Source: Thiobacillus denitrificans (GTDB lineage: Bacteria > Pseudomonadota > Gammaproteobacteria > Burkholderiales > Thiobacillaceae). From it: a DNA stretch of 64,000 nt. The notes beneath the pieces are model-generated. The model saw only the letters and a program-made list of their open reading frames with translations, did not search any database and was not told the origin of the DNA. How positions within the stretch are numbered: the stretch's first letter is position 1; each line of letters opens with the position of its first letter. The position numbers and the translations under genes were made by a program. The stretch spans positions 142,401-206,400 of the forward strand of contig DHHQ01000027.1 in NCBI GenBank assembly GCA_002403375.1, in the 5' to 3' direction. Shown one piece after another: positions 1,589 through 38,461 of this stretch.

Positions 1589-1646
1589 ATTCGCCCCGCG
1601 TCCGGTTGTTGCGTCGGTGATGGCTTGCGTGGTCATGTCGGACGAT

Positions 1647-1672
1647 CCCCGCCGGGTTTCCGCCCGGCGGGG
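1647..1672 (-). other. Intercistronic GC stem-loop between dsrP and dsrN
   Basis: CCCCGCCGGG-N6-CCCGGCGGGG 10-bp stem with no U-tract. Confidence 0.6.
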
Positions 1673-1681
1673 CTCATGCGA

Positions 1682-2884: not shown

Positions 2885-2890
2885 GTTGTT

Positions 2891-3670: not shown

Positions 3671-4164
3671 TTGGCAATCCCAGCCATCTCTTCGGCACTC
3701 ACCTTGGCATTGGCCTGGGAGGCGAGCTTGTGCTTGTAATGGGCGGTTTCAGCGTTCAGCGAGTGCATCGCCGCCGAGCCTTGCGGCTTGGTGGAGTGGC
3801 AATCGAAGCAGTCGATCTTGACCGCCGCGTAGCTGTGGCAGCTCACGCAGAAGTCCTCCTTGGCGGCTGCGACGCTGCCCGTCTGCTCGCTGGCGTGGCA
3901 GTTGATGCACTCCTTCAGGCTGTGCTTCGGGGTGCGCACCCCCTCGATCACGGTCTTGTCGCGATGCACGTTGAGCAGCTTCATGTGGTTCTTCCGCATG
4001 TACTCGGTGTCTTCCACGCACTGCTCACCCTTTACCGCCTTGGTGATGACCGGCTTGGGCGCGTCGCCCGCCTGGGCCGGGCCGACGGCCAGGCCCAGGC
4101 CGAGGACGGCGGCCGTCAGGACGGCCGAACCCCGCGCCAGCAGACTCTTGATCTTGCTGGCCAC
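3667..4164 (-). CDS. dsrJ: DsrJ periplasmic triheme cytochrome c
   Basis: Signal peptide; three CxxCH motifs (CINCH, CVSCH, CFDCH); between dsrL and dsrO. Confidence 0.92.
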   Translation of the reverse strand: MASKIKSLLARGSAVLTAAVLGLGLAVGPAQAGDAPKPVITKAVKGEQCVEDTEYMRKNHMKLLNVHRDKTVIEGVRTPKHSLKECINCHASEQTGSVAAAKEDFCVSCHSYAAVKIDCFDCHSTKPQGSAAMHSLNAETAHYKHKLASQANAKVSAEEMAGIAK

Positions 4165-4166
4165 GC

Positions 4167-6128: not shown

Positions 6129-6176
6129 GTTGGTTCTCCTAACGCCTACGAAATAAATTGAATATTCAAACGATGA

Positions 6177-7700: not shown

Positions 7701-7750
7701 TTGAGAGTCCTTTGTCCGTACTTATGCGTTCGTCGATTCGCGTCGACGAA

Positions 7751-8485
7751 TCAGTTGTTCTGATCGAGGCGCGCGGCCCACGCCGCCACATGGCGGTGCT
7801 CGCGCGGGTTGTCGGCCTGGTTGCGCGTCGGGCTGAAGAAGATGCCCGGGGCGTGCAGCAGCTTGCTGACCGGGAAGATCACCATCAGCAGCGCGACCAG
7901 CGCCAGGTGCGCCAGCAGGATCGGGTCCGCCGGAAGCGGCTGCACGTCGAAGTACATCAGACCCATGAAGAAGGCCTTCAGGCCGACGATGTCGGTGTGC
8001 GCGACGAAGGTCATCAGCATGCCGGACACGCCGATCGCGATCAGCAGCACCAGCATCAGGTAGTCGGAGGGCGTCGAGATGTAGCGGACGCGGTCGACGA
8101 CGAAACGGCGGGCGAGCAGGCCAGCGAGACCGATCACCATCATGATGCTGGCGTACTTGCCGAACGGCTGGATGAAGCCGACCCACGACCACACCGGCTC
8201 GGTGAAGTAGCGCAGATGGCGGGCCAGCACGAGGAACAGGCCGAAGTGGAACAGCCAGCCGAACACCCAGATCCACTTGTTCGACTTGAACAGGGATTCG
8301 AACAGCACCACTTCCTTCGCCATCCGGTAGACGACGCCCTTCTGCGTCGTCGGCGCCGGGGTGGTGGGAATCTTCAGCGGCGCAGGCGTGCGGCTGTAGT
8401 CATAAATCTTGAAAACCAGGCCGGCCACCAGCAACAGGGTGGCAAGGTAAAACATCCCGGCATAAATGATCGTCAAAGTAGACAA
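7751..8485 (-). CDS. dsrM: DsrM, NarI-like diheme cytochrome b
   Basis: Five hydrophobic helices with His ligands (LFHFG, ARHLRY, LAHLAL, LLHAPG); TTG start. Confidence 0.92.
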   Translation of the reverse strand: MSTLTIIYAGMFYLATLLLVAGLVFKIYDYSRTPAPLKIPTTPAPTTQKGVVYRMAKEVVLFESLFKSNKWIWVFGWLFHFGLFLVLARHLRYFTEPVWSWVGFIQPFGKYASIMMVIGLAGLLARRFVVDRVRYISTPSDYLMLVLLIAIGVSGMLMTFVAHTDIVGLKAFFMGLMYFDVQPLPADPILLAHLALVALLMVIFPVSKLLHAPGIFFSPTRNQADNPREHRHVAAWAARLDQNN

Positions 8486-8570
8486 ACTCTATCCCCTAAC
8501 TTCGTTGTGTTTACGAATCGAACGCAGGGCGGGCCGGCATTCGATTGGGAAACACCGCGTGAAAATCGAA

Positions 8571-8598
8571 GTCGCCCCGGAAACAGCCCCGGGGCGAC
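8571..8598 (-). other. Intercistronic stem-loop after dsrC
   Basis: GTCGCCCCGG-N8-CCGGGGCGAC 10-bp stem with no U-tract. Confidence 0.6.
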
Positions 8599-8613
8599 CC
8601 GACGTGCTACGGC

Positions 8614-8949
8614 TTAGATACAGCCGGTCGGCTTGGGCAGGCCAGCGATCTTACAAGCCTGCTTGGCGGGGCCGTAGGGGAACAACTCGTACAGGTACTT
8701 GTTGTTGCCCTTCTCGGGGCCGAGCTTCTTGCCGATGGCCTTGGTCAGAACGCGCACAGCGGGAGCGATCTGATACTCGGCGTAGTACTCGCGCAGGAAG
8801 TTGACGACTTCCCAGTGAGCGTCGGTCAGGTCGACCTTCTCTTCGACAGCCATGTACTTGGCGATGTCTTCGTTCCACTGCGACAGGTCGACCAGATAGC
8901 CTTCCTCGTCAACTTCGACTTCCTTACCGGCGATGTTCACCATAGGCAT
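8614..8949 (-). CDS. dsrC: DsrC sulfur carrier
   Basis: C-terminus KQACKIAGLPKPTGCI carries both conserved cysteines (C-X10-C); AAGGAG RBS before ATG 8949. Confidence 0.96.
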   Translation of the reverse strand: MPMVNIAGKEVEVDEEGYLVDLSQWNEDIAKYMAVEEKVDLTDAHWEVVNFLREYYAEYQIAPAVRVLTKAIGKKLGPEKGNNKYLYELFPYGPAKQACKIAGLPKPTGCI

Positions 8950-8972
8950 AGCAATACTCCTTCGATTAAAAG

Positions 8973-9272
8973 TTACAGCCAAGACTGACAGTTGCTGTGT
9001 TCTGCGACCAGATCCACAAAACCGCCGTAATCCACGACATTGACACCGTCCAGCACGCGCCCGGCCATGCCGCGCGCCGCCAGGTCGGGACCGAGTGCGT
9101 AAATCTTGAGGTCAGCTTGTGCTGCCTGGATTTTCGCCGCTGCCGCGCCGCCCTTCGTCGCCGCGTAGACCGCGTCTTCGATCAGCAGAACGGCAGAACC
9201 CTTGGTGGCCAGGCGCAGGCAGCTTTCCAGCGAGCTGCGCTCAGTGGCCGATTTATTCACGATATGCAGCAT
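8973..9272 (-). CDS. dsrH: DsrH (TusB-like)
   Basis: MLHIVNKS...LLIEDAVYAA...LAARG; order dsrEFH. Confidence 0.94.
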   Translation of the reverse strand: MLHIVNKSATERSSLESCLRLATKGSAVLLIEDAVYAATKGGAAAAKIQAAQADLKIYALGPDLAARGMAGRVLDGVNVVDYGGFVDLVAEHSNCQSWL

Positions 9273-9282
9273 GTCTGTCCCC

Positions 9283-9678
9283 TTAGAAGCTGATCACGAC
9301 GTCTTGCTCGGCCATGAGATTCTTCATCTCGTCGTCCGACATAACGGTCACATCAACAATCAGATCATCTTCGGTCAGGCCACGCGCTTCCATCGAAGTG
9401 CGGTCGACATAGAGCTTCTCGATGTCATAGCCTTCAAGCGCACGGTAGGTCTTGGAGAAATCCTTGACCTCGATACCCTTGGTATCGATGCCCTTCATCA
9501 ACTGGTAGACACCGTCGTCGGTGAACACCAGGCTTACGTCCTGATCGAAAGCGGCGGTAATCAGCACCACTTCCAGGCCCTCGAGCGCGTACACGGTACC
9601 GTGCGGCGCCTTGCGGTTCAGGAACATGAATTTCTTGACGATGCCGGAGCCGTCGTCTTCCATATCCATATCGCTCAT
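9283..9678 (-). CDS. dsrF: DsrF (TusC-like)
   Basis: KKFMFLNRKAPHGT...FTDDGVYQL; GAGG RBS before ATG 9678. Confidence 0.93.
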   Translation of the reverse strand: MSDMDMEDDGSGIVKKFMFLNRKAPHGTVYALEGLEVVLITAAFDQDVSLVFTDDGVYQLMKGIDTKGIEVKDFSKTYRALEGYDIEKLYVDRTSMEARGLTEDDLIVDVTVMSDDEMKNLMAEQDVVISF

Positions 9679-9689
9679 CTCGTTATTCC

Positions 9690-10049
9690 TCAATCACCGA
9701 ACGTCACGAGACGATCGTACTGAATACCCATTTCCACCAGCTGACCCAGACCGGAAATACGGAAACCCGGTGCCAGCAGTTCGTCCTTGATGCCGCGACG
9801 CAGCGCAGCGGCCACGCACACGACGAGGTCGATGCCGTGCTCTTCGGCCAGCTTCGACCAGCGCGCGGTGACGTTGCGGTCATCCTGCGGCGGCTCAGCC
9901 ATGCGCGTCGAGTTGTTCACGCCGTCATGGTAGAAAAAAATACGCGGAACCTTGTGACCCTTCTCGATCGCCGTGCGGGCGAAGAGGTAGGCGGAGTCAC
10001 TGGCCTGATGGTTGTAAGGCCCTTCGTTTACAAGAATGCCGAATTGCAT
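9690..10049 (-). CDS. dsrE: DsrE (TusD-like) sulfurtransferase
   Basis: IFFYHDGV and VVCVAAALRRG with the active-site Cys. Confidence 0.94.
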   Translation of the reverse strand: MQFGILVNEGPYNHQASDSAYLFARTAIEKGHKVPRIFFYHDGVNNSTRMAEPPQDDRNVTARWSKLAEEHGIDLVVCVAAALRRGIKDELLAPGFRISGLGQLVEMGIQYDRLVTFGD

Positions 10050-10092
10050 GGCTGCTCAAACTCCGAAAAATCCAGTCATTGTTATCAAGCGT

Positions 10093-10119
10093 CCGCCGCA
10101 GCCGGCAAGGCTGCGGCGG
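10093..10119 (-). other. Intercistronic stem-loop between dsrB and dsrE
   Basis: CCGCCGCAGCC-N5-GGCTGCGGCGG 11-bp perfect stem. Confidence 0.6.
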
Positions 10120-10141
10120 TGCTGACAGCTTCCTGAAACGC

Positions 10142-11212
10142 TTAGAAGCGGATGTGCGCCGAAGCGTTCAGGTTGTAACGGCCACCACGCCAGTTATCGA
10201 TGTGATACTTGGTGAAGGGCAGACCGGTCTTCTCGAAGAATGCGGGCCAGCCGATGCGGTCGATCCAGTCGATCATGCGCTCCCACGGCTTGCCGTCTTC
10301 CTTGTAGGTCGCGAGGATCTTCTTGACCACCTCGGCGACTTCCGGCCAACGCGGAGCGTTGTTCGGCAGGCCGGCAGCGACCAGCTTGTGGAAGGTCGGC
10401 TTGGAGCGGGCGTTGGAGTTCTTGCCGCCAACCCAGATCGCGATCTTGGAATGCTCGGGATCGTTGATCTGCATCGGGGGGCAGGGCGGGAAGCAGGCGC
10501 CACAGCAGATGCACTTCTTCTCGTCGACTTCCAGCGAGGGCTTGCCGTTCACCAGGGCGGGACGGATCGCAGCCACCGGGCAGCGTGCCACGACGGAGGG
10601 ACGCTCACACACGTTGGCGACCAGATCGTGGTTGATCTTCGGCGGCTTGGTGTGCTGAACGATGATTGCGATGTCGGCCTGGCCGCCGCAGTTGATCTCG
10701 CAGCAGGAGGTCGACAGCTTGACGCGGTTGGGCATCTCGCACTTGACGAAGTCGTCGTACAGCTCGTCCATCAGCGCCTTCACCACGCCGGAGGCGTCGG
10801 TGCCGGGGATGTCGCAGTGCAGCCAGCCCTGGGTGTGGGCGATCATGGAAACCGAGTTGGCGGTACCACCGATGGGGTAGCCCTTGTCGTTCAGCGCCTT
10901 GATCAGCGGCTCGACCTTGGAGCCGTCGGCAACCATGTACTCGATGTTGGAACGCGCGGTGAAGCGCACGAAACCGTCGCCGTACTGGTCGGCGATGTCG
11001 GCCAGCTCGCGAATGGTGTAGTGGTCCATCTGACGCTGGGTACCGGCCTTGACCGTCCAGATTTCGTCGCCGGACTCAGCGCGGTGATACAGGACACCCG
11101 GCTTCGGATGGCTGTGGAAGGCCCACTTGCCATAGTTCTTCACCATCACGGGGTGCATGTAGGGCATCGGATCCGGTGCGCCGGATTCGATAGGCGGACG
11201 TAGTTCTGCCAT
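10142..11212 (-). CDS. dsrB: Reverse dissimilatory sulfite reductase beta subunit
   Basis: HTQGWLHCDIPGTDASG, STSCCEINCG, ferredoxin CICCGACFPPCP. Confidence 0.97.
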   Translation of the reverse strand: MAELRPPIESGAPDPMPYMHPVMVKNYGKWAFHSHPKPGVLYHRAESGDEIWTVKAGTQRQMDHYTIRELADIADQYGDGFVRFTARSNIEYMVADGSKVEPLIKALNDKGYPIGGTANSVSMIAHTQGWLHCDIPGTDASGVVKALMDELYDDFVKCEMPNRVKLSTSCCEINCGGQADIAIIVQHTKPPKINHDLVANVCERPSVVARCPVAAIRPALVNGKPSLEVDEKKCICCGACFPPCPPMQINDPEHSKIAIWVGGKNSNARSKPTFHKLVAAGLPNNAPRWPEVAEVVKKILATYKEDGKPWERMIDWIDRIGWPAFFEKTGLPFTKYHIDNWRGGRYNLNASAHIRF

Positions 11213-11238
11213 GTTTTATCTCCAACTGATTGATGCAC

Positions 11239-11262
11239 GACCCCGGCCGGAACCGGGGCCGC
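11239..11262 (-). other. Intercistronic stem-loop between dsrA and dsrB
   Basis: mRNA GCGGCCCCGG-UUCCGG-CCGGGGUCGU stem including G-U pairs. Confidence 0.55.
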
Positions 11263-11290
11263 CCTGTATGAAACTGGTACAGCGTGAAAC

Positions 11291-12592
11291 TTAAGCGGCG
11301 GACTGCTTGTACTCGTTCCACTTCTCCACTTGCTCGTCCCAGTCGTCGGAACGGAAGTAGGGGTTGGAACGCGGCTCCTTGATCATGTTGGGATCGACCG
11401 GGATATCCAGACCTTCGAGGAAGTTGGTCAGGCCGATACGCTCGATCATTTCGCCGGTACGCTCGTGCTCCAGCGCGTTTTCCGCGAAGAAGTCGATGAT
11501 GTTGCGGGCCAGCTCGTTCAGCTTCTCGAAGTCCTCGTCCGACTCCATCTTCATGAACGGGATCACCACGGTGCCCATGGTCGCGCCGATCTTCAGCACG
11601 CCCTTGCCGCCCACCAGGATGGTCACGCCCTTGTCGACGCCGGTGCGCAGGCCGCCGGGGATGACGTTCAGGCAGTGCATGCAGCGGACGCAGTTCTTGT
11701 TGTCGATGCACAGGGTGTTGCCGTCGCCCAGGTTGGCGGCGGACACGTGCTCGCTGGCCTTAAACTTGTCGCTCGAAACCAGGGTGATGGCCTTGGTCGG
11801 GCACTTGCTGATCACGTCGTTGACGAGATCGTTCATGCCATGGGCCTTGTAGTAGTCCTGAACCTGCGCTTCGTTGACACGGATGTTGTCGCGCCAGGTG
11901 CCGATGGTCGCCATGTCGGAACGCTGGATGGCGTTGACGCAGTCGTTCGGGCAGCCGGAGAACTTGAACTTGAACTTGTACGGCAGGGACGGACGGTGCA
12001 TGTCGTCCAGGTTGTTGTTGATGACGGTGCGCAGGGCCTTGGCTTCGTCGTAGCAGGAGTGCTCGCAACGGGCGGCGCCAACACAGGACATCGAGGTGCG
12101 CAGCGCGGGGCCGGCGCCACCGAGGTCGAAGCCCATTTCGTTGAATTCGTCGAAGGCACGCTGAACGTCAGCGGTCTTGATGCCCTGGAACATGATGTCG
12201 CCGGACTGACCGTGGAACGCGATCAGGCCCGAGCCACCGGTCGCCGACCAGACGTCGCACATCTTGCGCAGCAGATCGGAGGTGTAGTGCATGCCGGCGG
12301 GCGGCTGGATGCGCAGGGTGTGGAATTCTGCGGCTTCGGGGAACAGGGGCTGATGGTTTTCATCCTTCAGCTCGGTGAAACGGGGGATAACGCCGCCGCC
12401 GTAACCGAACACGCCGACCGTACCGCCCTTCCAGTAACCGAACTTGGTCTTGTAGGAGGTTTCCAGCTGACCCATCAGGTCAACCATCATGTCGTTGTCT
12501 TTAGCCAGACGCTTGAGGCCGGTCACGAAGCTGGGCCACGGGCCTTTCTCGAGCTCGTCCAGATTGGGCGTATCAATCATTTGCTTTGCCAT
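11291..12592 (-). CDS. dsrA: Reverse dissimilatory sulfite reductase alpha subunit
   Basis: SCVGAARCEHSC and FSGCPNDC siroheme-4Fe4S motifs; WKGGTVGVFGYGGG. Confidence 0.97.
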   Translation of the reverse strand: MAKQMIDTPNLDELEKGPWPSFVTGLKRLAKDNDMMVDLMGQLETSYKTKFGYWKGGTVGVFGYGGGVIPRFTELKDENHQPLFPEAAEFHTLRIQPPAGMHYTSDLLRKMCDVWSATGGSGLIAFHGQSGDIMFQGIKTADVQRAFDEFNEMGFDLGGAGPALRTSMSCVGAARCEHSCYDEAKALRTVINNNLDDMHRPSLPYKFKFKFSGCPNDCVNAIQRSDMATIGTWRDNIRVNEAQVQDYYKAHGMNDLVNDVISKCPTKAITLVSSDKFKASEHVSAANLGDGNTLCIDNKNCVRCMHCLNVIPGGLRTGVDKGVTILVGGKGVLKIGATMGTVVIPFMKMESDEDFEKLNELARNIIDFFAENALEHERTGEMIERIGLTNFLEGLDIPVDPNMIKEPRSNPYFRSDDWDEQVEKWNEYKQSAA

Positions 12593-12966: not shown

Positions 12967-13188
12967 ATGCCTGAGATCACCCCTATCGACAAGATGCGCC
13001 TGCCCTTCGGCGGCCAGGAAGTCGAATTCCAGCACCTGACCCATGAAGCGGGGGGCGTGCCGTTCCTGCGCATCCGCATCCGCGAGAACAAGCGCTTCAC
13101 CATTTTCGACGTCGACCCCGCCAGCGCGGCGAAGTGGGCCGAGCTGATGCAGGCGTGGGCCAGGGACAACGCCGGGGACACGCCATGA
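12967..13188 (+). CDS. Small (73 aa) hypothetical protein
   Basis: MPEITPIDKMRLPFGGQEVEFQ...FLRIRIRENKRFTIFDVD; its stop overlaps the next start (ATGA). Confidence 0.75.
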   Translation: MPEITPIDKMRLPFGGQEVEFQHLTHEAGGVPFLRIRIRENKRFTIFDVDPASAAKWAELMQAWARDNAGDTP

Positions 13189-13841
13189 GCTGGAGCTTCC
13201 CCGAGCACAGGCCGGAGGAGTACACCCCACGCTTGATCGACCTGCAGTTCGATCTGGTCGGCACGACCATTCCGGCAGAAAACGCCCAGATGCTCGCCGA
13301 CGCGCTGCTGGGCATCCTGCCCTGGCTCGGCGAGGACTCCGGCGCCGGCATCCAGCACCTCAAGGGCGCCGAAACGAATACCGGCGACGCCTCGCTCAAC
13401 ATCAACCGCCGCACCAAGCTCTACGTGCGCGTCCCCAAGACGCGAGTCGACGACATGCAGCGGCTCGTCGGCCAGGCGGTCGATCTCGGCGGCCACACCC
13501 TGCGGATCGGCAACTTCAAGACCCGGGACTTCAGCCCGTTCGCCAACATCTATGCACACTTCGTTGACACCGGCAGCGTCACTGAAGAACAATTCGTGCA
13601 GGATGTGATGCGTGAGCTCGACGGCCGCTTCCAGTTGCGTTGCGGCTTCATCTGCGGCAAGCGGCAGACGCTGCTGACCGCGTCCGGCCAGATCTACGGC
13701 TACAGCCTGATGCTGCACGACGTGCCGCCGCACAAGTCCCTGCAACTGCAGGACGAAGGCATGGGACGCAACCGCTTGTTGGGCTGCGGGATTTTCATCC
13801 CGCACAAATCCATCGCGCCGGTCGTTCCGGCAATTCTTTAA
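13185..13841 (+). CDS. Orphan Cas6-like RAMP protein (resembles type I-MYXAN Cas6/Cmx6)
   Basis: N-terminal IDLQFDLVGTTIP strand; C-terminal G-rich loop LQDEGMGRNRLLGCGIFIPHK (GxGx5GxG); 218 aa; no other cas genes in the window. Confidence 0.8.
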   Translation: MSWSFPEHRPEEYTPRLIDLQFDLVGTTIPAENAQMLADALLGILPWLGEDSGAGIQHLKGAETNTGDASLNINRRTKLYVRVPKTRVDDMQRLVGQAVDLGGHTLRIGNFKTRDFSPFANIYAHFVDTGSVTEEQFVQDVMRELDGRFQLRCGFICGKRQTLLTASGQIYGYSLMLHDVPPHKSLQLQDEGMGRNRLLGCGIFIPHKSIAPVVPAIL

Positions 13842-13895: not shown

Positions 13896-14228
13896 ATGGC
13901 TTATGTTGTAAACGGCGAAGAGCTCGAAACCGGCGAAGAGGACTTTCTGCTGGAAGCCAACTTCAGCGACGATGTCCCCCCGGTGATCGCCGCGGCGGAA
14001 AAAATCACGCTGACCGACGAGCACTGGACGGTCATCAATTTCATGCGCGAGAAGTACAAGGAAGACGGCGCGACCCCGAACTTCCGCAACATGCTGTCCG
14101 AGATGGAAGATCTGTATCCGGGCACCGACTGGAAGAAGAAGCTGTACGAGCTGTTCCCCAACCAGCCCGCACGCCAGTCGGCGCGCGTCGCCGGCCTGAC
14201 CAAGCCTTACGGCAAGGGCGGCTACTAA
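13896..14228 (+). CDS. DsrC/TusE-family paralogue lacking all cysteines
   Basis: ITLTDEHWTVINFMRE and LYELFP...PARQSARVAGLTKP match the DsrC family; no Cys in 110 aa; AAGGAG RBS. Confidence 0.88.
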   Translation: MAYVVNGEELETGEEDFLLEANFSDDVPPVIAAAEKITLTDEHWTVINFMREKYKEDGATPNFRNMLSEMEDLYPGTDWKKKLYELFPNQPARQSARVAGLTKPYGKGGY

Positions 14229-19099: not shown

Positions 19100-19996
19100 G
19101 TGAGCGGCGCGGCGGCGACCGTCGCCGGGCTGCTGCACGACGCGACCGCGCGGCTGTCCGACGCGCTCGGCCTCGAGCGACGCGAGGCCCGCATCGAGGC
19201 GCGCGCGCTGGCGGTGCATGCCTGGGGGGTCGAAACCGCCTGGCTGATCGCGCACGACACCGATCGTCCCTCCCCCGCCCAGGCCGCCACCTTCCACGCC
19301 CTGCTCGAGCAACGGCTCGCCGGCCGGCCCGTCGCCTACCTCACCGGGATACGTGAATTCTACGGGCGCGCCTTCGCGGTCGGCCCGGATGTCCTGATTC
19401 CGCGTCCCGAGACCGAACTGCTGGTCGACGAGGCACTCGGCCACCTGCCCCCCGGCCGCCCGCTGCGCGTCCTCGACCTCGGCACCGGAAGCGGCTGCGT
19501 GGCCGTCACCCTCGCGCTCGAGCGCCCGCAGGCGATCGTCACCGCTGTCGACCGTTCGCCGGCGGCCCTGGCGCTCGCCCGGCGCAACGCGGACGCGCTG
19601 CGCGCGCCCGTGCGCTTCCTGCTCAGCGACTGGTTCGACGCGGTCGCCGGGGAGCGCTTCGACCTCATCGTCGGCAACCCCCCCTACATCGCCGCCGCCG
19701 ATCCCCACCTCGGCCGCGGCGACGTGCGCTTCGAACCGCTCGCCGCCCTGGCATCCGGAGACGACGGCTTCGCCGATCTGCGGCGGATCATCCGCGACGC
19801 CCCCGCCCATCTCGCGGCGGGCGGCTGGCTCTGGCTCGAGCACGGGTTCGAGCAGGCCGACGGCGCCCGGCGCCTGCTCCAGGAGGCCGGGTTTCATGAG
19901 GTGGACACGCGAGCCGACGCGGCCGGGCTGCCGCGCATCAGCGGCGGCCGGGTGTCGGAAAATTTTACAGACGGCCGACCCTGTCCTAAGCTGTGA
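19100..19996 (+). CDS. prmC: Release factor glutamine methyltransferase
   Basis: LIPRPETE, LDLGTGSG, NPPY. Confidence 0.95.
   Translation: MSGAAATVAGLLHDATARLSDALGLERREARIEARALAVHAWGVETAWLIAHDTDRPSPAQAATFHALLEQRLAGRPVAYLTGIREFYGRAFAVGPDVLIPRPETELLVDEALGHLPPGRPLRVLDLGTGSGCVAVTLALERPQAIVTAVDRSPAALALARRNADALRAPVRFLLSDWFDAVAGERFDLIVGNPPYIAAADPHLGRGDVRFEPLAALASGDDGFADLRRIIRDAPAHLAAGGWLWLEHGFEQADGARRLLQEAGFHEVDTRADAAGLPRISGGRVSENFTDGRPCPKL
19953..19969 (+). promoter_or_regulatory. TGT-N11-ACA enhancer-type site
   Basis: TGTCGGAAAATTTTACA, about 75 bp upstream of a sigma54 motif. Confidence 0.6.
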
Positions 19997-20044: not shown

Positions 20045-20060
20045 TGGCGCAAATCTTGCT
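20045..20060 (+). promoter_or_regulatory. Sigma54 (-24/-12) promoter
   Basis: TGGCGC-AAATC-TTGCT against consensus TGGCAC-N5-TTGCW. Confidence 0.75.
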
Positions 20061-20099: not shown

Positions 20100-20753
20100 A
20101 TGCCCACACATCCGGACAATGAGATCCCCAAGCACGACCCGCAAGGCGTCGATCTTTCGCGCCGCAAGCTCGGAATGGGCCTGGGCGTGTCGGCAGTCTT
20201 TACACTGGCGAGCCGCCCCGTGCTCGCCGCCGAGTGCCTGGCCGCCTCGTCCGCGGCGTCCGGCAACCTGAGCACGCACGGCGCGGTGCCGCAGTGCACC
20301 GGCCTCACGCCCGCCCAGTGGGTCGCGCTCGCGCAGAACACCCGGCCGAACGCTCCCGACAGTCCCACCCAGAACGGTTTCCCGGGCGGAAACGTGAAAT
20401 TCCACGACGCCTTCGCCAGCGGGGGAAGCGCCAACTGGGGCCAGACCCGCCTCTACGGGGTCATGGCCGACGGCACCGGCGCCAGCTCCGGCCGCGGCGG
20501 TTTCCTCGGCTCGCCCGACAACGAGCAGGCGGCGACGGTCCCCGCAAGCGGGCCGAACCCCGTCTCCATGGAGTTCGCCGCCACGCTCCTGAACATCCGC
20601 GACGGGCGCGTTCCCGACGCAGTATTGAGCGAAACCCGCCTGCTGCAGATGTGGAACGAGTGGCTGATCTCGGGCACCTACGCGCCGATGGCCGGCGCGA
20701 CCTGGGGCACCGACCAGATCGTCGCCTATCTGCGCACCCTCCAGGGCGTCTGA
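20100..20753 (+). CDS. Putative Tat-exported protein
   Basis: SRRKLG twin-arginine motif, hydrophobic stretch, VLA-A cleavage site; two Cys. Confidence 0.75.
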   Translation: MPTHPDNEIPKHDPQGVDLSRRKLGMGLGVSAVFTLASRPVLAAECLAASSAASGNLSTHGAVPQCTGLTPAQWVALAQNTRPNAPDSPTQNGFPGGNVKFHDAFASGGSANWGQTRLYGVMADGTGASSGRGGFLGSPDNEQAATVPASGPNPVSMEFAATLLNIRDGRVPDAVLSETRLLQMWNEWLISGTYAPMAGATWGTDQIVAYLRTLQGV

Positions 20754-20759
20754 CCGGGT

Positions 20760-21011
20760 GTGCGCTTCCAGCTGAAAGAGTACGCATCCGAAGCGGTCGC
20801 CTACGACACGGAATCCGGCGACACGCACTATCTCGCGCCGCTCGCCTTCTCGCTGTACCAGCTTTTCCGCGAGCACCCCGGATTGCCGCGCAAAGCCGCC
20901 GGGCAGTTGCTGGCTCGGCGCCATGGCATCGAGCCCGACCCGTCGCTCGACGCCGAGATCGACGAAACGCTCGAGGGGCTGGTGCGCATCGGCCTGATCC
21001 ATCTCGAATGA
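20760..21011 (+). CDS. PqqD-like (RRE-type) small protein of the HprK-related kinase A system
   Basis: 83 aa, AVAYDTESGDTHYL...TLEGLVRIGLI pattern; ATGA overlap with the kinase gene. Confidence 0.7.
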   Translation: MRFQLKEYASEAVAYDTESGDTHYLAPLAFSLYQLFREHPGLPRKAAGQLLARRHGIEPDPSLDAEIDETLEGLVRIGLIHLE

Positions 21012-21934
21012 AGCTGCTGCAACTCCCGCACGCCGAGCTGCGCGAACGCCTGCGCGACACCGGCATCTGGCTCCGCACCGGCCCGTTCTCGCTGCAGATC
21101 CGCTCGCGCGTGCCGAGCGTGGCCGAGGGCCTGGCCGAGCTTTACGGACAGTTCGAGGTCCGCCATCCGCGCGAGACCTTCGCCGACTTCCACGTGGAAG
21201 TGAATGCGCCCGGTGCCCTGCGGCGCTGGCTGCGGCCGCAGGTCGACTTTTCCTTCGACGGGCAGCTGCCGTTCAAGCCCCTGCCCTACGGCCAGGCCTA
21301 CCCGATGCTCGAATGGGGCCTCAACTGGTGCGTGTCGATGCACGCGCACCACTACCTCGTGATCCACGCGGCGGTGGTGGAAAAGAACGGCGGCGCGGCG
21401 ATCCTGCCGGCGCCGCCCGGATCGGGCAAGAGCACGCTGACCGCCGGCCTGGTGCTGTCGGGGTGGCGCCTGCTGTCGGACGAACTCGCGCTGGTCGACC
21501 GCAGGAGCGGCATGATCCATCCGCTACCGCGCCCAGTGAGCCTGAAGAACGCGTCGATCCCGCTGATCCGGGCGTTCAGCCCCGAGGCCTTCATCAACCG
21601 CCCGTCGCACGACACCGCCAAGGGCACCGTCGCCCACATGCGTCCGCCCAAGGAGAGTGTGCGCCGCCAGCACGAACCCGCGCGGCCCGCCTGGGTGATC
21701 TTCCCGCGCTGGATCGCGGGTGCCACCACCGCGCTGACGCCCCGCTCGCCCGCCCAGACCTTCATGTTCCTGGCGCAGAACGCGTTCAACTACAGCCACC
21801 TCGGCGCCGACGGCTTCCGCACCGGCACCCGCCTCATCGACGAGGTGGCGTGCTACGACTTCGCCTACAGCCGCCTCGACGAGGCCGTGCGGACGTTCGA
21901 CCGCCTCGCCGACGCGCACGCCGGAGCCGACTGA
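21008..21934 (+). CDS. HprK-related kinase A
   Basis: IHAAVV, Walker A PAPPGSGKSTL, LLSDE. Confidence 0.8.
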   Translation: MKLLQLPHAELRERLRDTGIWLRTGPFSLQIRSRVPSVAEGLAELYGQFEVRHPRETFADFHVEVNAPGALRRWLRPQVDFSFDGQLPFKPLPYGQAYPMLEWGLNWCVSMHAHHYLVIHAAVVEKNGGAAILPAPPGSGKSTLTAGLVLSGWRLLSDELALVDRRSGMIHPLPRPVSLKNASIPLIRAFSPEAFINRPSHDTAKGTVAHMRPPKESVRRQHEPARPAWVIFPRWIAGATTALTPRSPAQTFMFLAQNAFNYSHLGADGFRTGTRLIDEVACYDFAYSRLDEAVRTFDRLADAHAGAD

Positions 21935-21935
21935 G

Positions 21936-23036
21936 ATGCGCCCCGCCGACGACCTGCTGGTCCGCGCCCTGAGGGCCCCCGAAGGCGTCGCGACCCTTTC
22001 GCTCGCACAGTGGGATCGCCTGGTCAGGCAGGCGCGCCACGCCGGCCTGCTGGCGCGCCTGCACGGTCGCCTGGACGCACTCGGCCTCGTCGACGCGATC
22101 CCCGATCCGGCACGCTGGCACTTCGAGGCCGCGACGACGCTTGCGCACAAGCAGCAGGTCGCCGTGCGCTGGGAGGTCGGCCAGATCCGCGACGCCCTCG
22201 CCACGCTCGACGGCCCCATGGTCGTGATGAAGGGCGCGGCCTACGTGATCGCTGGACTCCCCGCCGCGCGCGGGCGGCTGTTCAACGACATCGACATCCT
22301 GGTGCCGCGCCGGCTGCTGAACCAGGCGGAAGCCGCGCTGATGCTGGCGGGCTGGCACGCGAGCGGGCTGTCCGCCTACGACGAGCGCTACTACCGACGC
22401 TGGATGCACGAGATTCCGCCGATGCGGCACCTGCGGCGCGCCACCGTGATCGACGTGCACCACGCCATCCTGCCGGACACCGCGCGCGATTTCCCCGACC
22501 CCGAGAAGCTGCTCGGCCGCATCGTTCCGGTCGCGGGGCTGCCGCGCGTATACGTGCTGTCCGCCGAGGACCGCATCCTGCATTCGGCCACGCACCTGTT
22601 CCACGACGGCGAGCTGCCGCACGGGCTGCGCGACCTCTCCGACCTCGACCTGCTGCTGCGCCACGAATCGGCTGCGGCCGGGTTCTGGCCACGGCTGGTC
22701 GCGCGCGCCGGCGAGCTGCAGCTCGGCCGCCCGCTCTTCTACGCACTGCGCTACGCGAGGCATTTCCTCGCCACCCCGGTGCCCGCCGAGGTATGGGACG
22801 CGCTGCGCCCGGCCGCGCCTTCTCCCCTGCTGCTGCGGGTGATGGACGGCATGTTCAGCCGCGCGCTGGCCCCCCTGCATGCGAGCTGCGACGACGCGCT
22901 GAGTCCACTCGCGCGCCAGGCGGCCTACGTCCGCGCCCACTGGCTCAGGATGCCCGCGCACCTGCTGCTGCCACACCTGTTCCACAAGGCCTTCGTCAGC
23001 CCCTGGCAGGACGCCGAATCGCCCAGGGCCGCTTGA
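21936..23036 (+). CDS. Nucleotidyltransferase family protein (NTP_transf_5-like)
   Basis: VMKGAAY and RLFNDIDILV (DxD) motifs. Confidence 0.78.
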   Translation: MRPADDLLVRALRAPEGVATLSLAQWDRLVRQARHAGLLARLHGRLDALGLVDAIPDPARWHFEAATTLAHKQQVAVRWEVGQIRDALATLDGPMVVMKGAAYVIAGLPAARGRLFNDIDILVPRRLLNQAEAALMLAGWHASGLSAYDERYYRRWMHEIPPMRHLRRATVIDVHHAILPDTARDFPDPEKLLGRIVPVAGLPRVYVLSAEDRILHSATHLFHDGELPHGLRDLSDLDLLLRHESAAAGFWPRLVARAGELQLGRPLFYALRYARHFLATPVPAEVWDALRPAAPSPLLLRVMDGMFSRALAPLHASCDDALSPLARQAAYVRAHWLRMPAHLLLPHLFHKAFVSPWQDAESPRAA

Positions 23037-23060
23037 CTCGGTTCCGGCCCTGCGTATAAT
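23033..23060 (+). promoter_or_regulatory. Sigma70 promoter for grxD
   Basis: TTGACT-N16-TATAAT. Confidence 0.7.
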
Positions 23061-23099: not shown

Positions 23100-23420
23100 A
23101 TGACCCCTCTCGATCGCATCCGTGACCAGGTCACCAACAACACCGTCGTGCTGTACATGAAAGGCACCCCGCAGTTTCCGCAGTGCGGCTTCTCGGCGCG
23201 CGCCGCCCAGGTCCTGCAGGCCTGCGGCGTGAAGGATTTCCTCGCGGTGAACGTGCTGATGGATCCGGAAATCTTCGAAAACCTGAAGTACTACGCCAAC
23301 TGGCCGACCTTTCCGCAGCTCTACGTCAAGGGCGAGCTGATCGGCGGGTCCGACATCATGCTCGAGATGTACCAGAAGGGCGAAATCCAGAAGCTGCTGG
23401 CCGAAGCGCAAGCCGCCTGA
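23100..23420 (+). CDS. grxD: Monothiol glutaredoxin
   Basis: PQCGFS, WPTFPQLY, IGGSDI. Confidence 0.96.
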   Translation: MTPLDRIRDQVTNNTVVLYMKGTPQFPQCGFSARAAQVLQACGVKDFLAVNVLMDPEIFENLKYYANWPTFPQLYVKGELIGGSDIMLEMYQKGEIQKLLAEAQAA

Positions 23421-24908: not shown

Positions 24909-26000
24909 TCAGGTGGGTAGCGGCAGGAAGATGGAAAAAACGGTGTGGCCGGGGCGGCTCTCGCAATCGATGGTGCCGTGGTTCTGCGCGACCAGCGTCT
25001 GCGCGACCGCGAGGCCGAGCCCGCTGCCCCCCTCGCGTCCCGACACCAGCGGATAGAAGATCTGCTCGCGGATCTCGTCGGGGATGCCGGGGCCGTTGTC
25101 GATGATCTCGATCCGCATGCCAAGACGGTAGCGGCGGCTCTCGAGCGTGATCTGGCGGGCCACCCGGGTGCGGAAGACGATCTCGCACGGTCCGTGCCCA
25201 TGCCCGTTGCCGTGCCCATGCCCGTGACCGTGCATTGCCTGCACGGCGTTGCGCGCGATGTTCAGCGTCGCCTGGATCAACTGCTCGGCGTCGGCGCGGA
25301 TCTCGGGCAGGCTGATGTCGTAGTCGCGACGCACGGTCACGCTCGGCGTCTCCGCCAGGATCAGGCTGCGGACGCGCTCCAGGACTTCGTGGATATTGAC
25401 CGCACCATAATGGGGCATGCGGTGCGGCGTCAGCAGACGCTCCATCAGCGACTGCAGACGGTCCGATTCCTTGATGATGACCTGGGTGTATTCGCGCAGG
25501 CTCTCACGCGGCAGTTCGTGCTCGAGCAGCTGCGCCGCGCCGCGGATGCCGCCGAGCGGATTCTTGATCTCATGGGCGAGATTGCGCAGCAGCTCGCGGT
25601 TCGCCTCCTGCTGCATGCGCGCCTGCTCGAGGCGGGCGATGCGCATGTGGGGATCGACCGCCCGCATCTCGAGCAGCACGGCGTGCGGCGGGTTCTCCAG
25701 CGGGGACACGCTGCAGCCGACCCGGATGGGCGGATGTCCGCTCACCGTGACGTCGAGTTCGTACTCGATGACGGTTTCCTGCTCGGTGCGCGCGGTGCGG
25801 ATCGCAGCGAGCAGTTCGGGGCTGCGCTCGAAGACGTGGTCGGCATCCTCGCCGACCAGCAGGGCGCCTGACACCCCCAGCAAGGTCTCCGCCGCGGGGT
25901 TGACGTAGAGGATGCGGCCGTCGGCATCGAGCAGCACGGTGCTGGTCGATAGGCAATCAAGTCCGGAAAACGTGCTCGGGGAAGACGTCATGAGGGGCAT
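24909..26000 (-). CDS. ntrB: Nitrogen regulation sensor kinase NtrB
   Basis: PAS domain, LAHEIKNPLGGIRGAAQLL, DNGPGIP, GSGLGL. Confidence 0.95.
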   Translation of the reverse strand: MPLMTSSPSTFSGLDCLSTSTVLLDADGRILYVNPAAETLLGVSGALLVGEDADHVFERSPELLAAIRTARTEQETVIEYELDVTVSGHPPIRVGCSVSPLENPPHAVLLEMRAVDPHMRIARLEQARMQQEANRELLRNLAHEIKNPLGGIRGAAQLLEHELPRESLREYTQVIIKESDRLQSLMERLLTPHRMPHYGAVNIHEVLERVRSLILAETPSVTVRRDYDISLPEIRADAEQLIQATLNIARNAVQAMHGHGHGHGNGHGHGPCEIVFRTRVARQITLESRRYRLGMRIEIIDNGPGIPDEIREQIFYPLVSGREGGSGLGLAVAQTLVAQNHGTIDCESRPGHTVFSIFLPLPT

Positions 26001-31405: not shown

Positions 31406-31911
31406 GGCCGGCACTCCGGAGGCGGGTTGTCGTAATCCTTTTTCGGGTCATCGCAGGCGGATGGGCTGAAAGCGTGCTTGCGGCAGTACTCTCGATCGGT
31501 CTTGAGCCTGCAGTACCAGCTGTTCAGGCGGCGCTCAACACTGCGCTCGGGAATGGCGGTGTTGGGCTGGCAGGCAGGATAGGTCTTGTATTTAGGGAAT
31601 TTCCTGCAGGATTGCTCAACGCTGTCCCATCTCGCGACAAATCCTGATTTTTCCATGCATGCTGACACCATGAATGCATAGCTGAGCTGTTCGTCGAGTG
31701 TTTTGAGCCCTAATGCCTTTTCATACATAAAACCCGTAACAGCGTAATGCGGCGCACCGCACTCAAGCATAGCCTTCTTAACATCAATCTGGCTCAAGCC
31801 AGGTTTCATCCACTTTTCGTACGCTTCGGGAGCGGGTTTGTCTATGTTATGGATGCTGTATCCACCGCAACCGGATAGAACCAACATAGCAATTACAACC
31901 GATCGATTCAT
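31402..31911 (-). CDS. Cys-rich lipoprotein, candidate cognate immunity protein
   Basis: Lipobox LSGC; eight further Cys; ATGA overlap with the TpsA stop. Confidence 0.8.
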   Translation of the reverse strand: MNRSVVIAMLVLSGCGGYSIHNIDKPAPEAYEKWMKPGLSQIDVKKAMLECGAPHYAVTGFMYEKALGLKTLDEQLSYAFMVSACMEKSGFVARWDSVEQSCRKFPKYKTYPACQPNTAIPERSVERRLNSWYCRLKTDREYCRKHAFSPSACDDPKKDYDNPPPECRP

Positions 31912-34900
31912 GGTTTTCCTCCATTCTGGGCTGCTGGTTTGGACGGCACCTCAATGGTTTTGGGTGAGCCATAGCTCCCTTTGCAGCCTTCAGGGTCCAC
32001 CGCACCTGTCCCATAACAACTATGCACCGTGGGCGCATCGCCGAAGATCCGCCACCATTCGTTCAGCCGGCTGCTCTCGGCCGGGCGCTGGTCGTAAGTC
32101 GCCGGGTTGTTACCAATCAGGCCGCCCACGAAGTCGTCCGCATGATTCTGCAACAGCACCACCGAATGATTTCCGTTGCTCATGGCATCGAGCAGGGTGG
32201 CGGCATCTTGTGCATCGTAGGCCGGGCCCACGAATTTGATCTCGGTGTTCGCCAGCACGCCGCTGGATCCGGCCTCGCCAGCTAGGGACTCCATCGCGTT
32301 CCCGATGGTCATTGCACCGCGGCTGTGGCCCACCAGGTTGAGCCCGTCGGCTCCATACTGCCCCATCAGATTTTTTATCTCCTGGGTGGCGTTCGCAAGG
32401 TCGCCAACGCCACCTTCCAGAAATTTCTGGTAACCCGCAACCATCAGTTCGGAAATAGCGTTGTCGGCCTCGGGATAGTAGACAAGATAAACATCCTGGC
32501 CGGGAGGCAGCTCGCTCATCTGCACGGCATACCCGCCCGCTGCGGCCTCGTCGTTGAAGATGCCATTGGTGAAAACGTTCAGCCTCTCTCCGGCTTCGGG
32601 CTTGAGCGCACCCTTTTCGGTATCGGAGAGTTCAGTCATGACCGGTTTGCCGTCTTCACCCTTTACGACCTCACCCGTTTCCGCGTCACGTACCACCCTA
32701 TATATTTTCGCCTTCTCCAGGAAGGAGACGCGGTAGGCCTCGTCACTGAACTTAACCGCTTCCTTGAACGTCGCCTCCTTGATTGACCTCTCGGCCTCGA
32801 CGATCTGTCTCATTGCCTCGACGTCCTGTCGTTCCGCGACAGTATGCGCGTTAGCCGTGTCACGGTTCAGCCTGGCAATGGCTTCTTCCGCGGTATGGCC
32901 AGTCTGTTCAAGCTGTTGCGCCTCGTCGGTAATACGAACAGAGCCACTGCTGATAGCCGCCAGCGTCTGGCCGCTACTGCTGCCCGATTCGTTGGCATTG
33001 TTCAGTCCAGTCCCAATAGCCGCTTTGGCAGCACCGTATTTGCCCTGCGTGGCCATGCTGCTATCCAGGCTGATGCCGCTCGATTTAGCACTGGCGTCCG
33101 CGCGGTTCTGAATATCGCTGGTAGTGAGCGTTCCAGTAATGAGGCTGTTCCTGCCTTGGTGAACGGCAACTTGGGTGGATTCGATCACCGCTCCCTTGAG
33201 GTCGGTGTTGCCGCTCACGACAATATCGAAGCCGCCGTCGCCCGCCTTGATGCCGGACTGCTCGACGACGCTGGCGTGGTCACCGTGAACTTTGCTCTTG
33301 CTCGCGCTGACACTGCCGCTGACGCCGGCGCCGATGGTGACGCTGCCGCCGACGTTCTGCTGTTTGCTGTCGTAGCGACTGGTGTCCTGCAGGCTTTCGA
33401 TGGCGAGGTTGCCCCCGACATCGGCGACGACCTGGTTGCCGCTGGCGACCGCGCCCTTGAGGATGGTGTCGCCACCGCTTTTCAGGCTGAGCTGGTTGCC
33501 GGCTTCGACATGGGTGTTGGTATAGCTCACGTCGCTGCCGTCGGCGTTGCCACGGCCTTTGCTTCCGCTTGCGGTCACGCCGAAGCCGTTGGTGCCAAAG
33601 CTAACACCAATGCTGGCACTGCTGCTCTCGTTGGTGCTGTGCTGGTCCGCGGTATTTTGGGCGGCGAGGAGTTGGACTTCGTCGTCCGCCTGAAGGCTGA
33701 CGTTGTTGCCCGCGCTGATGGCGCTGCCCTGGGCGGTGAGGTCGCTGGCCTCGCCTGCGCCAGTGGCACGGATGTCGACGTTGCCGGCCGCGGCGACGGT
33801 CGAGCCCTGCGCGGTGCTTGCGGCCTGTACGCTGTTGCTCTTGCTCCGGCTTCCGCCGACGCTGATGCTGACGTTGATGCCGCCGGCTTGCTGGGCCAGG
33901 CTGGCACTCTCGATCGCCCGGCCGGCCTGGGTGGCGTCGTAGGCATCTTTTGCGGCCAGCGCGGCGGTGCCGCCGGCGAGCGCCCGCATCCGCGGGTCGT
34001 CCGTATGGCCGGCGGCATTCCGCATCTCTTGCGCGGTCTGCGCGGCGGAGATGACGGGGCTGGACAGGGCGACGGTGAGGCCGCTTTGCTCGAAACGGGT
34101 TTCATTCTCGCTGCGGCCGGCATTCTGCGCCTCCACGATATCGACGCGTTGCGCTGCGATCGCGATATCGCCCTGCGGAGCCAGCACGCTGCTGCCGGTC
34201 TGGGTGTAGGCGTCACCGGCCCGGATCTCGACATTGCCCCGGGTGCTTCCCACCGTGCTGGCAGCGGCGTAGGTGGAAACGCTGTCGGCGGTTTGCGTGG
34301 TCCGCAGGTTACCGTAGGTGATCGACAGGCCACCGCTGGTGAAGAGCCCTGACTTCTGCTTGTCCGCAAAATGCGTCGCGCTGCGTGTCTCGGTAGCGGT
34401 TGCAATCGCCACATCGTTGCCCGCCACCAGCCGGGTATCTGCATCCGACACGACATTGCTGCCGGCGACCCGGATGTCGCGGCCGGCTTGGAGATCGATG
34501 CTGTCAGCGCTGAAGGTGGACGCCACCGCCACGGTGTCGCGCGTCTCGTCCAGATTGGTCGTGGTGGTGGAGGAAAGGAAACCGCTCTTGGTGGCGTGAC
34601 GCGCCTCACTCCAGTTCTGGCTGGCCTCGCCTGACTCGATGCGCAGGTCGCGGCCCACCGTGGCCTGAACCGCCCCGTTTTCGCTGTTCACCTGCGCCGC
34701 GCGGGCGGCGAGGTCCTGTCCGGCGGAGAGCGTCACGTCGCCCCGGGTCTGGATGACCGTGCCGACTTCCCACGTGCTGCCCTGTTTGAGATGGTTTTTC
34801 GCATCCCACACGACGTTGTCCTGTTGGCCGGTGGTGACGGTGGCGAGGTTCAGATCGTTGCCGGCCTGGACCAGGGTCTGGCCGTCCGCGCCGCTGTTGG

Positions 34901-38453: not shown

Positions 38454-38461
38454 GTTATGTC

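Follow-up and report, generated by a model that had tools for sequence, protein, structure and literature searches.

A conserved four-gene unit in Thiobacillus denitrificans and its relatives: a twin-arginine-leader protein encoded beside a PqqD-like protein, an HprK-related kinase, and a nucleotidyltransferase

Here, we analyse a four-gene locus in a 64,000-nucleotide (nt) stretch of a Thiobacillus denitrificans genome (NCBI GenBank assembly GCA_002403375.1, contig DHHQ01000027.1, positions 142,401 to 206,400 of the forward strand), which we call the window and to which the coordinates of the locus refer. The locus occupies 20100–23036 on the plus strand and encodes a protein with a twin-arginine leader, designated X, followed by a PqqD-like protein, a kinase related to HprK, and a nucleotidyltransferase (NTase). 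These four genes recur together in diverse lineages, and the leader of X is shared with a second class of proteins that are encoded at the same position and are otherwise unrelated to it. An earlier note on this DNA had suggested that X is the substrate of the other three proteins; we set out the evidence that bears on this suggestion and weigh it against other explanations.

The locus and its genes

All four genes that the earlier note had placed here are present, and the three that follow X match the expected families. The features of the locus and its flanks are the following.

20045–20060, plus strand: sigma-54-type (−24/−12) promoter-like site, TGGCGCAAATCTTGCT, 40 nt before the start codon of X
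20100–20753, plus strand: gene X, 217 amino acids (aa), twin-arginine leader, putative substrate
20157–20228, plus strand: twin-arginine leader of X, with S20-R21-R22-K23-L24, a hydrophobic region, and T35-L-A-S-R-P-V-L-A43
20235–20297, plus strand: Cys/Ser motif of X, C46-x3-S50-x3-S54-G-N-x-S58-x7-C66, at the start of the mature part
20760–21011, plus strand: PqqD-like protein, 83 aa, TIGR04353
21008–21934, plus strand: HprK-related kinase A, 308 aa, TIGR04352
21419–21436, plus strand: Walker A motif of the kinase, G138-S-G-K-S-T143
21479–21484, plus strand: D158-E159 motif of the kinase
21936–23036, plus strand: NTase, 366 aa, PF14907
22230–22295, plus strand: polymerase-beta-type signature of the NTase, K99-G100…D118-x-D120
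19100–19996: prmC, upstream flank
23100–23420: grxD, downstream flank

The four genes are tightly spaced: X and the PqqD-like gene are 6 nt apart, the PqqD stop codon overlaps the kinase start codon by 4 nt (ATGA), and the kinase and NTase genes are separated by 1 nt. This spacing makes a single operon likely, and to judge from their layout, the four genes look like one. Among sequencing runs, the locus turned up in metagenomic DNA and in none of RNA. It also means that a small open reading frame (ORF) cannot fit between them. A short precursor hidden elsewhere in the window was sought by ORF inspection and rejected, as was a second copy of X, the X profile matching one copy only in the six-frame translation of the 64 kb. 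A terminator scan returned a single terminator-like match, which lies inside the kinase gene and is at chance level. From the ORFs of the window and the Pfam matches of a syntenic locus (L001), the upstream flank is composed of hemA, prfA, and prmC and the downstream flank of grxD, ntrC, ntrB, a DUF4124 gene, and glnA. On the same basis, an asparagine-synthetase-like lasso cyclase (C protein) and a transglutaminase-like leader protease (B2) are absent within ~8 kb; a short precursor peptide is likewise absent over that distance, leaving the 217-aa X as the sole candidate substrate. The description of the cassette as one without lasso cyclase, peptidase, or short precursor is therefore borne out.

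The PqqD-like protein scores above the curated cutoff of TIGR04353, ‘HPr-rel-A system PqqD family peptide chaperone’ (46.2 bits; cutoff 35). The Pfam family PqqD (PF05402) is matched individually by 18 of 44 family members, and a family profile built from 44 diverse members matches two lasso leader-binding proteins, TfuB1 (6jx3_B, E 2e-4, full length) and TbiB1 (5v1u, E 0.03). We regard the protein as a probable recognition element of the kind found with peptides that are made on the ribosome and modified post-translationally (RiPPs), that is, a RiPP recognition element (RRE), of the lasso B1 type.

The kinase matches TIGR04352, ‘HprK-related kinase A’, at equivalog level and over the full profile length (411.9 bits; cutoff 200; E 1e-123), and diverse alignments show GSGKST, D158, and E159 to be invariant. 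Its AlphaFold2 model (predicted local distance difference test [pLDDT] 72.6), when searched with Foldseek, matches ATP-dependent phosphoenolpyruvate (PEP) carboxykinase (E ~1e-6) and, less closely, HprK/P (E ~6e-3), two enzymes that have a common P-loop fold; a comparison with PDB sequences gave no meaningful match. Homologues are abundant: more than 6000 are found in the protein collection, the 120th best being still 77% identical, and 448 clusters are matched at E<1e-30 in a 50%-identity library. The NTase belongs to PF14907 (NTP_transf_5; E 1.4e-57), and its K99, G100, D118, D120, and D173, together with several His residues, are at least 93% conserved among 101 homologues, a comparison with PDB sequences yielding no relative. 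The catalytic motifs of both enzymes are intact. Among the 150 best representatives of the kinase, nine are ~700 aa long (690–720 aa: P0242, P0250, P0254, P0258, P0270, P0288, P0329, P0330, and P0364), and all four of these that were checked by Pfam (P0242, P0258, P0330, and P0364) carry a C-terminal PF14907 domain. Natural kinase–NTase fusions of this kind (‘Rosetta stone’ proteins) argue that both enzymes act in one pathway.

X itself matches no Pfam or NCBIfam (20.0) family, and none of the 131 homologues found is named. Its N-terminus reads VDLSRRKLGMGLGVSAVFTLASRPVLAAEC, in which the twin-arginine motif is followed by a hydrophobic stretch, then by a c-region with a basic residue, and by an AxA-like end. 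All the sequence features of a twin-arginine translocation (Tat) signal are found in it, namely SRRKL, the h-region GMGLGVSAVFTLA, and then SRPVLA, with the predicted cleavage before the next A; relatives carry SRRHFTK or NRRRFLR at the twin-arginine site. In a weighted alignment of 116 homologues of the class to which X belongs (~36 effective clusters), R21 and R22 are 100% conserved and T35, L36, S38, P40, V41, L42, and A43 are 62–84% conserved. From motif and conservation, X is a probable Tat substrate, and we propose that the leader segment serves both in Tat targeting and as the RRE-binding site, with cleavage after A43.

Conservation in the same alignment is high again directly past the predicted cleavage site, where three serines are spaced i, i+4, i+8: S50 and S54 are invariant (100% each), followed by C46 (97%), G68 (95%), C66 (92%), and S58 (89%). 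S50 and S54 would be the best candidate acceptor serines, and C46 and C66 are likely to form a disulfide in the periplasm. We also considered X as a lipoprotein. A Cys right after (V/M)-(L/M)-A, which would resemble a lipobox, occurs in a few distant homologues only; one to three residues separate the two in the window X and in most homologues, and this reading was not adopted.

An AlphaFold2 model of X built with 64 homologues shows the mature part as a helical domain (pLDDT 80–94 for residues 61–125 and 151–217), residues 1–40 being disordered. A Foldseek search of this model against the PDB returned nothing below E 5, and the X profile had no meaningful match among PDB sequences, so that a function cannot be assigned to X from its fold.

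Conservation across genomes and two classes of cargo

Eighty genome loci were retrieved with the kinase, all from Thiobacillaceae and in the order hemA-prfA-prmC-X-PqqD-kinase-NTase-grxD; the segment from prmC to grxD is syntenic in ~75 of the 77 informative genomes. Wherever a Thiobacillaceae locus is uncut by a contig end, an ORF of ~190–260 aa ends 30–60 nt before PqqD, the exceptions being L039, in which this ORF is fragmentary, and L006, in which it is degraded. Across the family, the kinases are 73–93% identical, whereas X is only 30–70% identical.

Genomes outside the Thiobacillaceae were found with a profile of diverse kinases, and the encoding contigs were examined (nine genomic contexts). 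In each of these (Janthinobacterium, Noviherbaspirillum, Sulfurirhabdus, a Methylophilaceae genome, and five additional long contigs), the unannotated gene immediately before PqqD encodes an X homologue, and when the search was reversed to start from distant X homologues, the cassette followed every time. A metagenome scan seeded with kinases only ~40% identical to that of the window yielded 80 diverse loci; nearly all have the order PqqD-kinase-NTase, and in a subset the NTase is instead divergent upstream. With an iterated X profile, an upstream leader-bearing ORF was detected in 42 of the 43 metagenomic loci whose sequence extends 750 nt or more upstream of PqqD; the sole miss, L102, has such an ORF on inspection (hence 43 of 43), as does L132, in which PqqD was not matched. 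Over 170 loci, the NTase is next to the kinase in nearly all. The co-occurrence check that the earlier note had called for thus establishes the twin-arginine-leader gene as the constant upstream neighbour of PqqD-kinase-NTase across diverse lineages, and X-PqqD-kinase-NTase is a conserved mobile four-gene unit.

Locus L006, from the metagenome-assembled genome of an uncultured betaproteobacterium, contains two tandem cassettes after prmC (3727–6028 and 6100–10043). Behind the first set, which is divergent, come X and PqqD fragments (frameshifted or degraded, perhaps because of an assembly error) and then a second intact kinase–NTase pair.

The proteins encoded upstream of PqqD split into two classes that are unrelated in their mature parts and have a common twin-arginine leader, RR…TLxS[R/G]P…A…C. 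The X of the window belongs to class 1, in which the leader is followed by C-x3-S-x3-S-G-N-x-S-x7-C-x-G-(T/S)-P-G-Y-W and then by a helical domain with ‘H-x-V-A-A-L-L-N-A’. Class 2 ranges from peptides of 70–85 aa to proteins of ~230 aa, many of them ending in ‘S-C-W-(A/T)-S-F’ or in a Ser-rich tail; its N-terminal pattern is (R)RR-(L/F)-x-(K/R)-G-x4-6-P-x-(V/I)-x-T-L-x-S-(G/R)-x-A-x-A…C. The short class-2 peptides, with a TLxSG leader and two Cys residues (L114, 474–737; L149, 5228–5521; L091, 187–444; L117, 1070–1348), look in sequence like genuine short RiPP precursors. In six class-2 loci (L102, L114, L119, L126, L149, and L163), the NTase gene is divergent upstream.

Ordinary Tat signals have little in common beyond the RR motif. 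One leader placed before unrelated cargo is a signature of leader-directed processing. What generally defines a RiPP, a ribosomally made precursor whose leader is conserved, whose core varies, and whose gene stands beside that of an RRE, is found at these loci, and as far as sequences can tell, the pattern of leader and cargo follows a RiPP-like logic. The kinases, too, group by cargo class, the nearest neighbour belonging to the same class in 57 of 60 cases; this would be expected if enzyme and substrate had diversified together, or had at least been inherited as a unit.

The promoter-like site upstream of X is the single exact match to TGGYRCN5TTGCW in the 64-kb window, where 0.15 would be expected by chance. 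It has the sigma-54 form TGGCAC-N5-TTGCW, with GG and GC 10 nt apart, and a promoter scan found no sigma-70-like site upstream of X. A sigma-54 match at the equivalent position before X is present in ~50 of the 80 Thiobacillaceae loci as well as in Sulfurirhabdus (L084), L148, L161, L165, and L169; matches at 9 or more of 11 positions occur before X in 85 of 129 loci, as against 36 of 560 random 300-nt windows. The site probably acts as the sigma-54 promoter of the four-gene operon. A strong sigma-70-like promoter, TTGACT-16-TATAAT (11 of 12 positions), is found at 23033–23060 on the plus strand, where it overlaps the last part of the NTase gene ahead of grxD, and grxD is therefore probably transcribed alone. 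Exact matches to TGGYRCN5TTGCW also recur on the minus strand in the ntrC/ntrB region (L021, L025, L027, L028, L032, L037, L038, L043, and L053), in several Thiobacillus loci near 11355–11380 or an equivalent position, and may represent a promoter related to glnA-ntrBC.

The module lies between prmC and grxD in Thiobacillaceae, in Sulfurirhabdus, and in the related metagenomic contigs L172 and L174, and elsewhere in the Methylophilaceae genome. In seven of the nine contexts found through non-Thiobacillaceae kinase homologues, it is located inside PEP-CTERM/exosortase polysaccharide loci. Besides PEP-CTERM proteins, Poly_export, Wzz/GNVR, and Bac_transf, such loci encode one large TPR protein, a protein of Sel1/SLT type, a carrier protein alongside two hydrolases, and a GAF histidine kinase with a sigma-54 activator; PrsK/PrsR-like regulators are among their products. 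This usual habitat indicates a role in the cell envelope or matrix.

Several other features of the window are recorded here as observations in their own right. A reverse-type dsr cluster (218–12592, minus strand) includes NIR_SIR pairs (dsrA/B, 10142–12592), a Nitrate_red_gam-like gene, CCG and Fer4 genes, a Pyr_redox_2 gene (dsrL-like), a further Fer4 gene, an NrfD-like gene (dsrMKLOP-type), and a CobB/CobQ-like amidotransferase gene (dsrN-like, 218–1636). A Cas6-family gene (13134–13841, plus strand; PF09559, E 2e-58) stands alone between dsrAB and a dsrC-like gene (13896–14228), and the arrangement Cas6-DsrC-rhodanese is also seen in L001; a search of the 64-kb window with TRF revealed no CRISPR array, and the gene is an orphan cas6 in a sulfur-oxidation cluster. 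A two-partner secretion pair (31908–40192, minus strand) encodes a 2181-aa TpsA-like protein (ESPR, TPS domain, and haemagglutinin repeats) and a 576-aa transporter of the ShlB/FhaC type with POTRA domains. Finally, an 18-nt tandem repeat inside the ntrB-like gene (25192–25233) gives rise to a His-Gly repeat, HGHGHGHGNGHGHG, in the sensor kinase.

Proposed pathway and rival explanations

The earlier note had pointed to lasso-peptide tailoring as a precedent for an RRE, a kinase, and an NTase acting together, and the literature confirms it. PsmK phosphorylates a peptide, after which the NTase-like PsmN attaches a hexose to the phospho-Ser of pseudomycoidin (PMC6993621, PMC9266682), and many lasso clusters combine HPr kinase and PqqD with an uncharacterised nucleotidyltransferase (PMC7533575). 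The activity of PsmN requires the pair D134/D136 (PMC6993621), of which D118-x-D120 in the NTase of the window is the counterpart.

We consider it probable that the RRE, the kinase, and the NTase modify X before its export. X would be made with its N-terminal twin-arginine leader; the PqqD-like RRE would bind this leader in the cytoplasm, probably at TLASRPVLA beside the RR motif, and present X to the enzymes. HprK-related kinase A would then use ATP to phosphorylate S50, S54, and perhaps S58, and the PF14907 enzyme would extend the phospho-serine, either with a hexose, by analogy with PsmN, or with a nucleotidyl group. Folded and modified, X would be exported by Tat, the leader would be removed near A43, and the C46–C66 disulfide would probably enclose the modified loop. 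The product probably works in the periplasm or the extracellular matrix, given that the module lies inside PEP-CTERM/exosortase polysaccharide loci in most other lineages. We infer that the RRE binds the leader and that Tat exports X, and likewise the acceptor residues, the second step's chemistry, and the biological role. The sequence ‘phosphorylation then nucleotidylation’, as the earlier note had put it, is one version of that chemistry; on the precedent of PsmN, the second step could instead be phospho-glycosylation. The choice of the Tat protein as substrate gains strong support from comparative data: the upstream adjacency, the conserved leader with variable cargo, the RRE homology, and the kinase–NTase fusions.

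A bolder formulation, possible in our view and falling somewhat short of probable, is that the Tat signal peptide doubles as a RiPP-style leader, read by a lasso-B1-like RRE that recruits the kinase and the NTase-fold enzyme, so that a phospho-linked group, glycosyl or nucleotidyl, is placed on the invariant serines prior to export. It would cover folded proteins and short peptides alike and would amount to a new and widespread class of leader-guided modification tied to PEP-CTERM/exosortase matrix systems in Proteobacteria.

Several points count against modification of X by its neighbours. The Tat assignment of X is drawn from its motif, and the conservation of the leader could reflect constraints from Tat or from a chaperone rather than recognition by the RRE. 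The characterised lasso kinases use a C-terminal Ser, and X has no conserved Ser at its C-terminus, which makes the acceptor site a guess from conservation; the model of X is, moreover, of medium confidence at the Cys/Ser motif (pLDDT 65–68). L006 has an additional PqqD-kinase-NTase set without X directly upstream, although 2 kb from it the locus has both a degraded X and a second cassette. The frequent placement in polysaccharide loci, lastly, leaves room for a substrate among sugars or extracellular polysaccharide (EPS) intermediates.

The last of these points can be developed into an account, which we think unlikely, in which sugars, or lipid-linked EPS intermediates of the PEP-CTERM/exosortase system, are the substrates of the kinase and the NTase, X being a periplasmic accessory and PqqD its chaperone. 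Nucleotidyltransferases commonly activate sugars, and the seven EPS-type loci among the nine non-Thiobacillaceae contexts are what this account would lead one to expect. In Thiobacillaceae, Sulfurirhabdus, and the Methylophilaceae genome, however, the four genes keep together at sites away from EPS genes, so that the conserved unit is X-PqqD-kinase-NTase rather than the EPS genes; nor does it explain why the kinases co-vary with cargo class or why a PqqD/RRE protein, which has no known role in sugar chemistry, should be a member, and the PF14907-type PsmN of the lasso precedent acts on a phosphopeptide. The EPS link, which the earlier note had listed as a finding that would count against a protein substrate, is thus real as genomic context and does not displace the reading of X as substrate. 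A similarly low probability attaches to cofactor loading, with PqqD acting as a signal-peptide chaperone like TorD, NapD, or DmsD and the enzymes making or activating a phospho- or nucleotidyl-ligand that is inserted into X, its serines staying unmodified. Tat passengers are typically folded or loaded with cofactor in the cytoplasm, where dedicated chaperones bind their signal peptides; mature X forms a compact helical domain without a fold match in the PDB, and the kinase is closer in fold to PEP carboxykinase, a small-molecule enzyme, than to HprK. Yet peptides of 70–85 aa, as in class 2, are unlikely to hold a cofactor, and the fully conserved serines are situated in a flexible N-terminal loop and not in a pocket. 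The PqqD relatives of solved structure, moreover, are RiPP leader binders, and peptides are the substrates of the closest relatives of the kinase/NTase pair that have been characterised (PMC6993621).

The enzymes might also serve signalling instead of tailoring: the kinase would phosphorylate X reversibly, gating its Tat export or its activity, and the NTase would adenylylate X or a partner as a switch. HprK/P, which Foldseek also matches, is a bifunctional regulatory kinase/phosphorylase, and the sigma-54 promoter, like the sigma-54 activators encoded nearby, suggests that expression is regulated. We nonetheless find this improbable: the location of the enzymes and X in one operon and the kinase–NTase fusion are typical of stoichiometric maturation systems, and wherever the combination of RRE and leader has been characterised, it is biosynthetic. 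The short class-2 peptides, the RRE homology, and the co-variation of enzyme and cargo favour covalent modification of the leader-bearing product.

Should covalent modification of X be confirmed, RRE-guided chemistry of the RiPP type would reach beyond small peptides to exported folded proteins, with a signal peptide serving as the recognition leader, and phospho-linked modification would join the repertoire of bacterial secreted proteins. This chemistry would be tied to the poorly understood PEP-CTERM/exosortase systems of the biofilm matrix and to their sigma-54 regulation. The analysis also provides an annotation for the orphan family X, for which Pfam and NCBIfam have no model.

Comparison with known systems

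With both its kinase and the adjacent PqqD above curated cutoffs, the locus is a member of the HPr-rel-A system of NCBIfam/TIGRFAMs. The catalogue entry is a bioinformatic definition that describes neither substrate nor function. To it, we add a twin-arginine-leader substrate gene, as we propose, a constant PF14907 partner, a putative sigma-54 promoter, and two cargo classes; the inclusion of the PF14907 NTase as a constant member is our working definition and not that of NCBI. A search of a paper library found no publication on the HPr-rel-A system, HprK-related kinase A, or TIGR04352/TIGR04353 and nothing relevant on PF14907 (whose one match was an unrelated phosphonate survey), on twin-arginine signals with RREs, or on PEP-CTERM with PqqD; two RRE survey papers mention neither kinases nor Tat. 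The earlier note's claim of an uncharacterised modification pathway therefore stands as regards publications, and needs correction in that the three-enzyme cassette has already been catalogued, is common, and is not peculiar to the window. The cassette is found in thousands of genomes and metagenomes, and a probable conserved substrate renders its function testable through four genes, one leader, and two serines.

A more distant relative is the SynChlorMet cassette, whose ScmC (TIGR04249/PF27840) is an HprK-like homologue of the kinase in a putative peptide-modification cassette. The kinase of the window matches TIGR04249 weakly (27.8 bits, far below the cutoff of 125), and PF27840 is assigned to it among precomputed matches; the radical-SAM/SPASM partners of SynChlorMet are absent here.

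TorD, DmsD, and NapD offer an analogy of another kind. Each is a small cytoplasmic protein encoded beside its Tat passenger and holds the signal peptide until maturation, as is proposed here for the PqqD-like protein. They belong to a different fold family from PqqD/RRE and assist in the insertion of a metal cofactor, in contrast to the covalent modification proposed here, and no homology is claimed.

The closest likeness in composition is to the lasso tailoring set (the B1 RRE; the kinases PadeK, ThcoK, and PsmK; PsmN; products such as paeninodin and pseudomycoidin), which comprises the same three protein types. The HPr-rel-A locus described here differs from that set in lacking a cyclase, a B2 protease, and a short precursor that bears a lasso leader; its putative substrate is a twin-arginine protein of 217 aa as opposed to a peptide of ~40 aa, and the candidate acceptor serines are near the mature N-terminus instead of at the C-terminus. 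The hosts differ as well, being Proteobacteria with a link to exosortase systems here and Bacillus and Paenibacillus for the characterised lasso examples cited. On this comparison, the system would be a form of RRE-guided tailoring whose cargo carries a Tat leader and in which the lasso core was lost or was never present.

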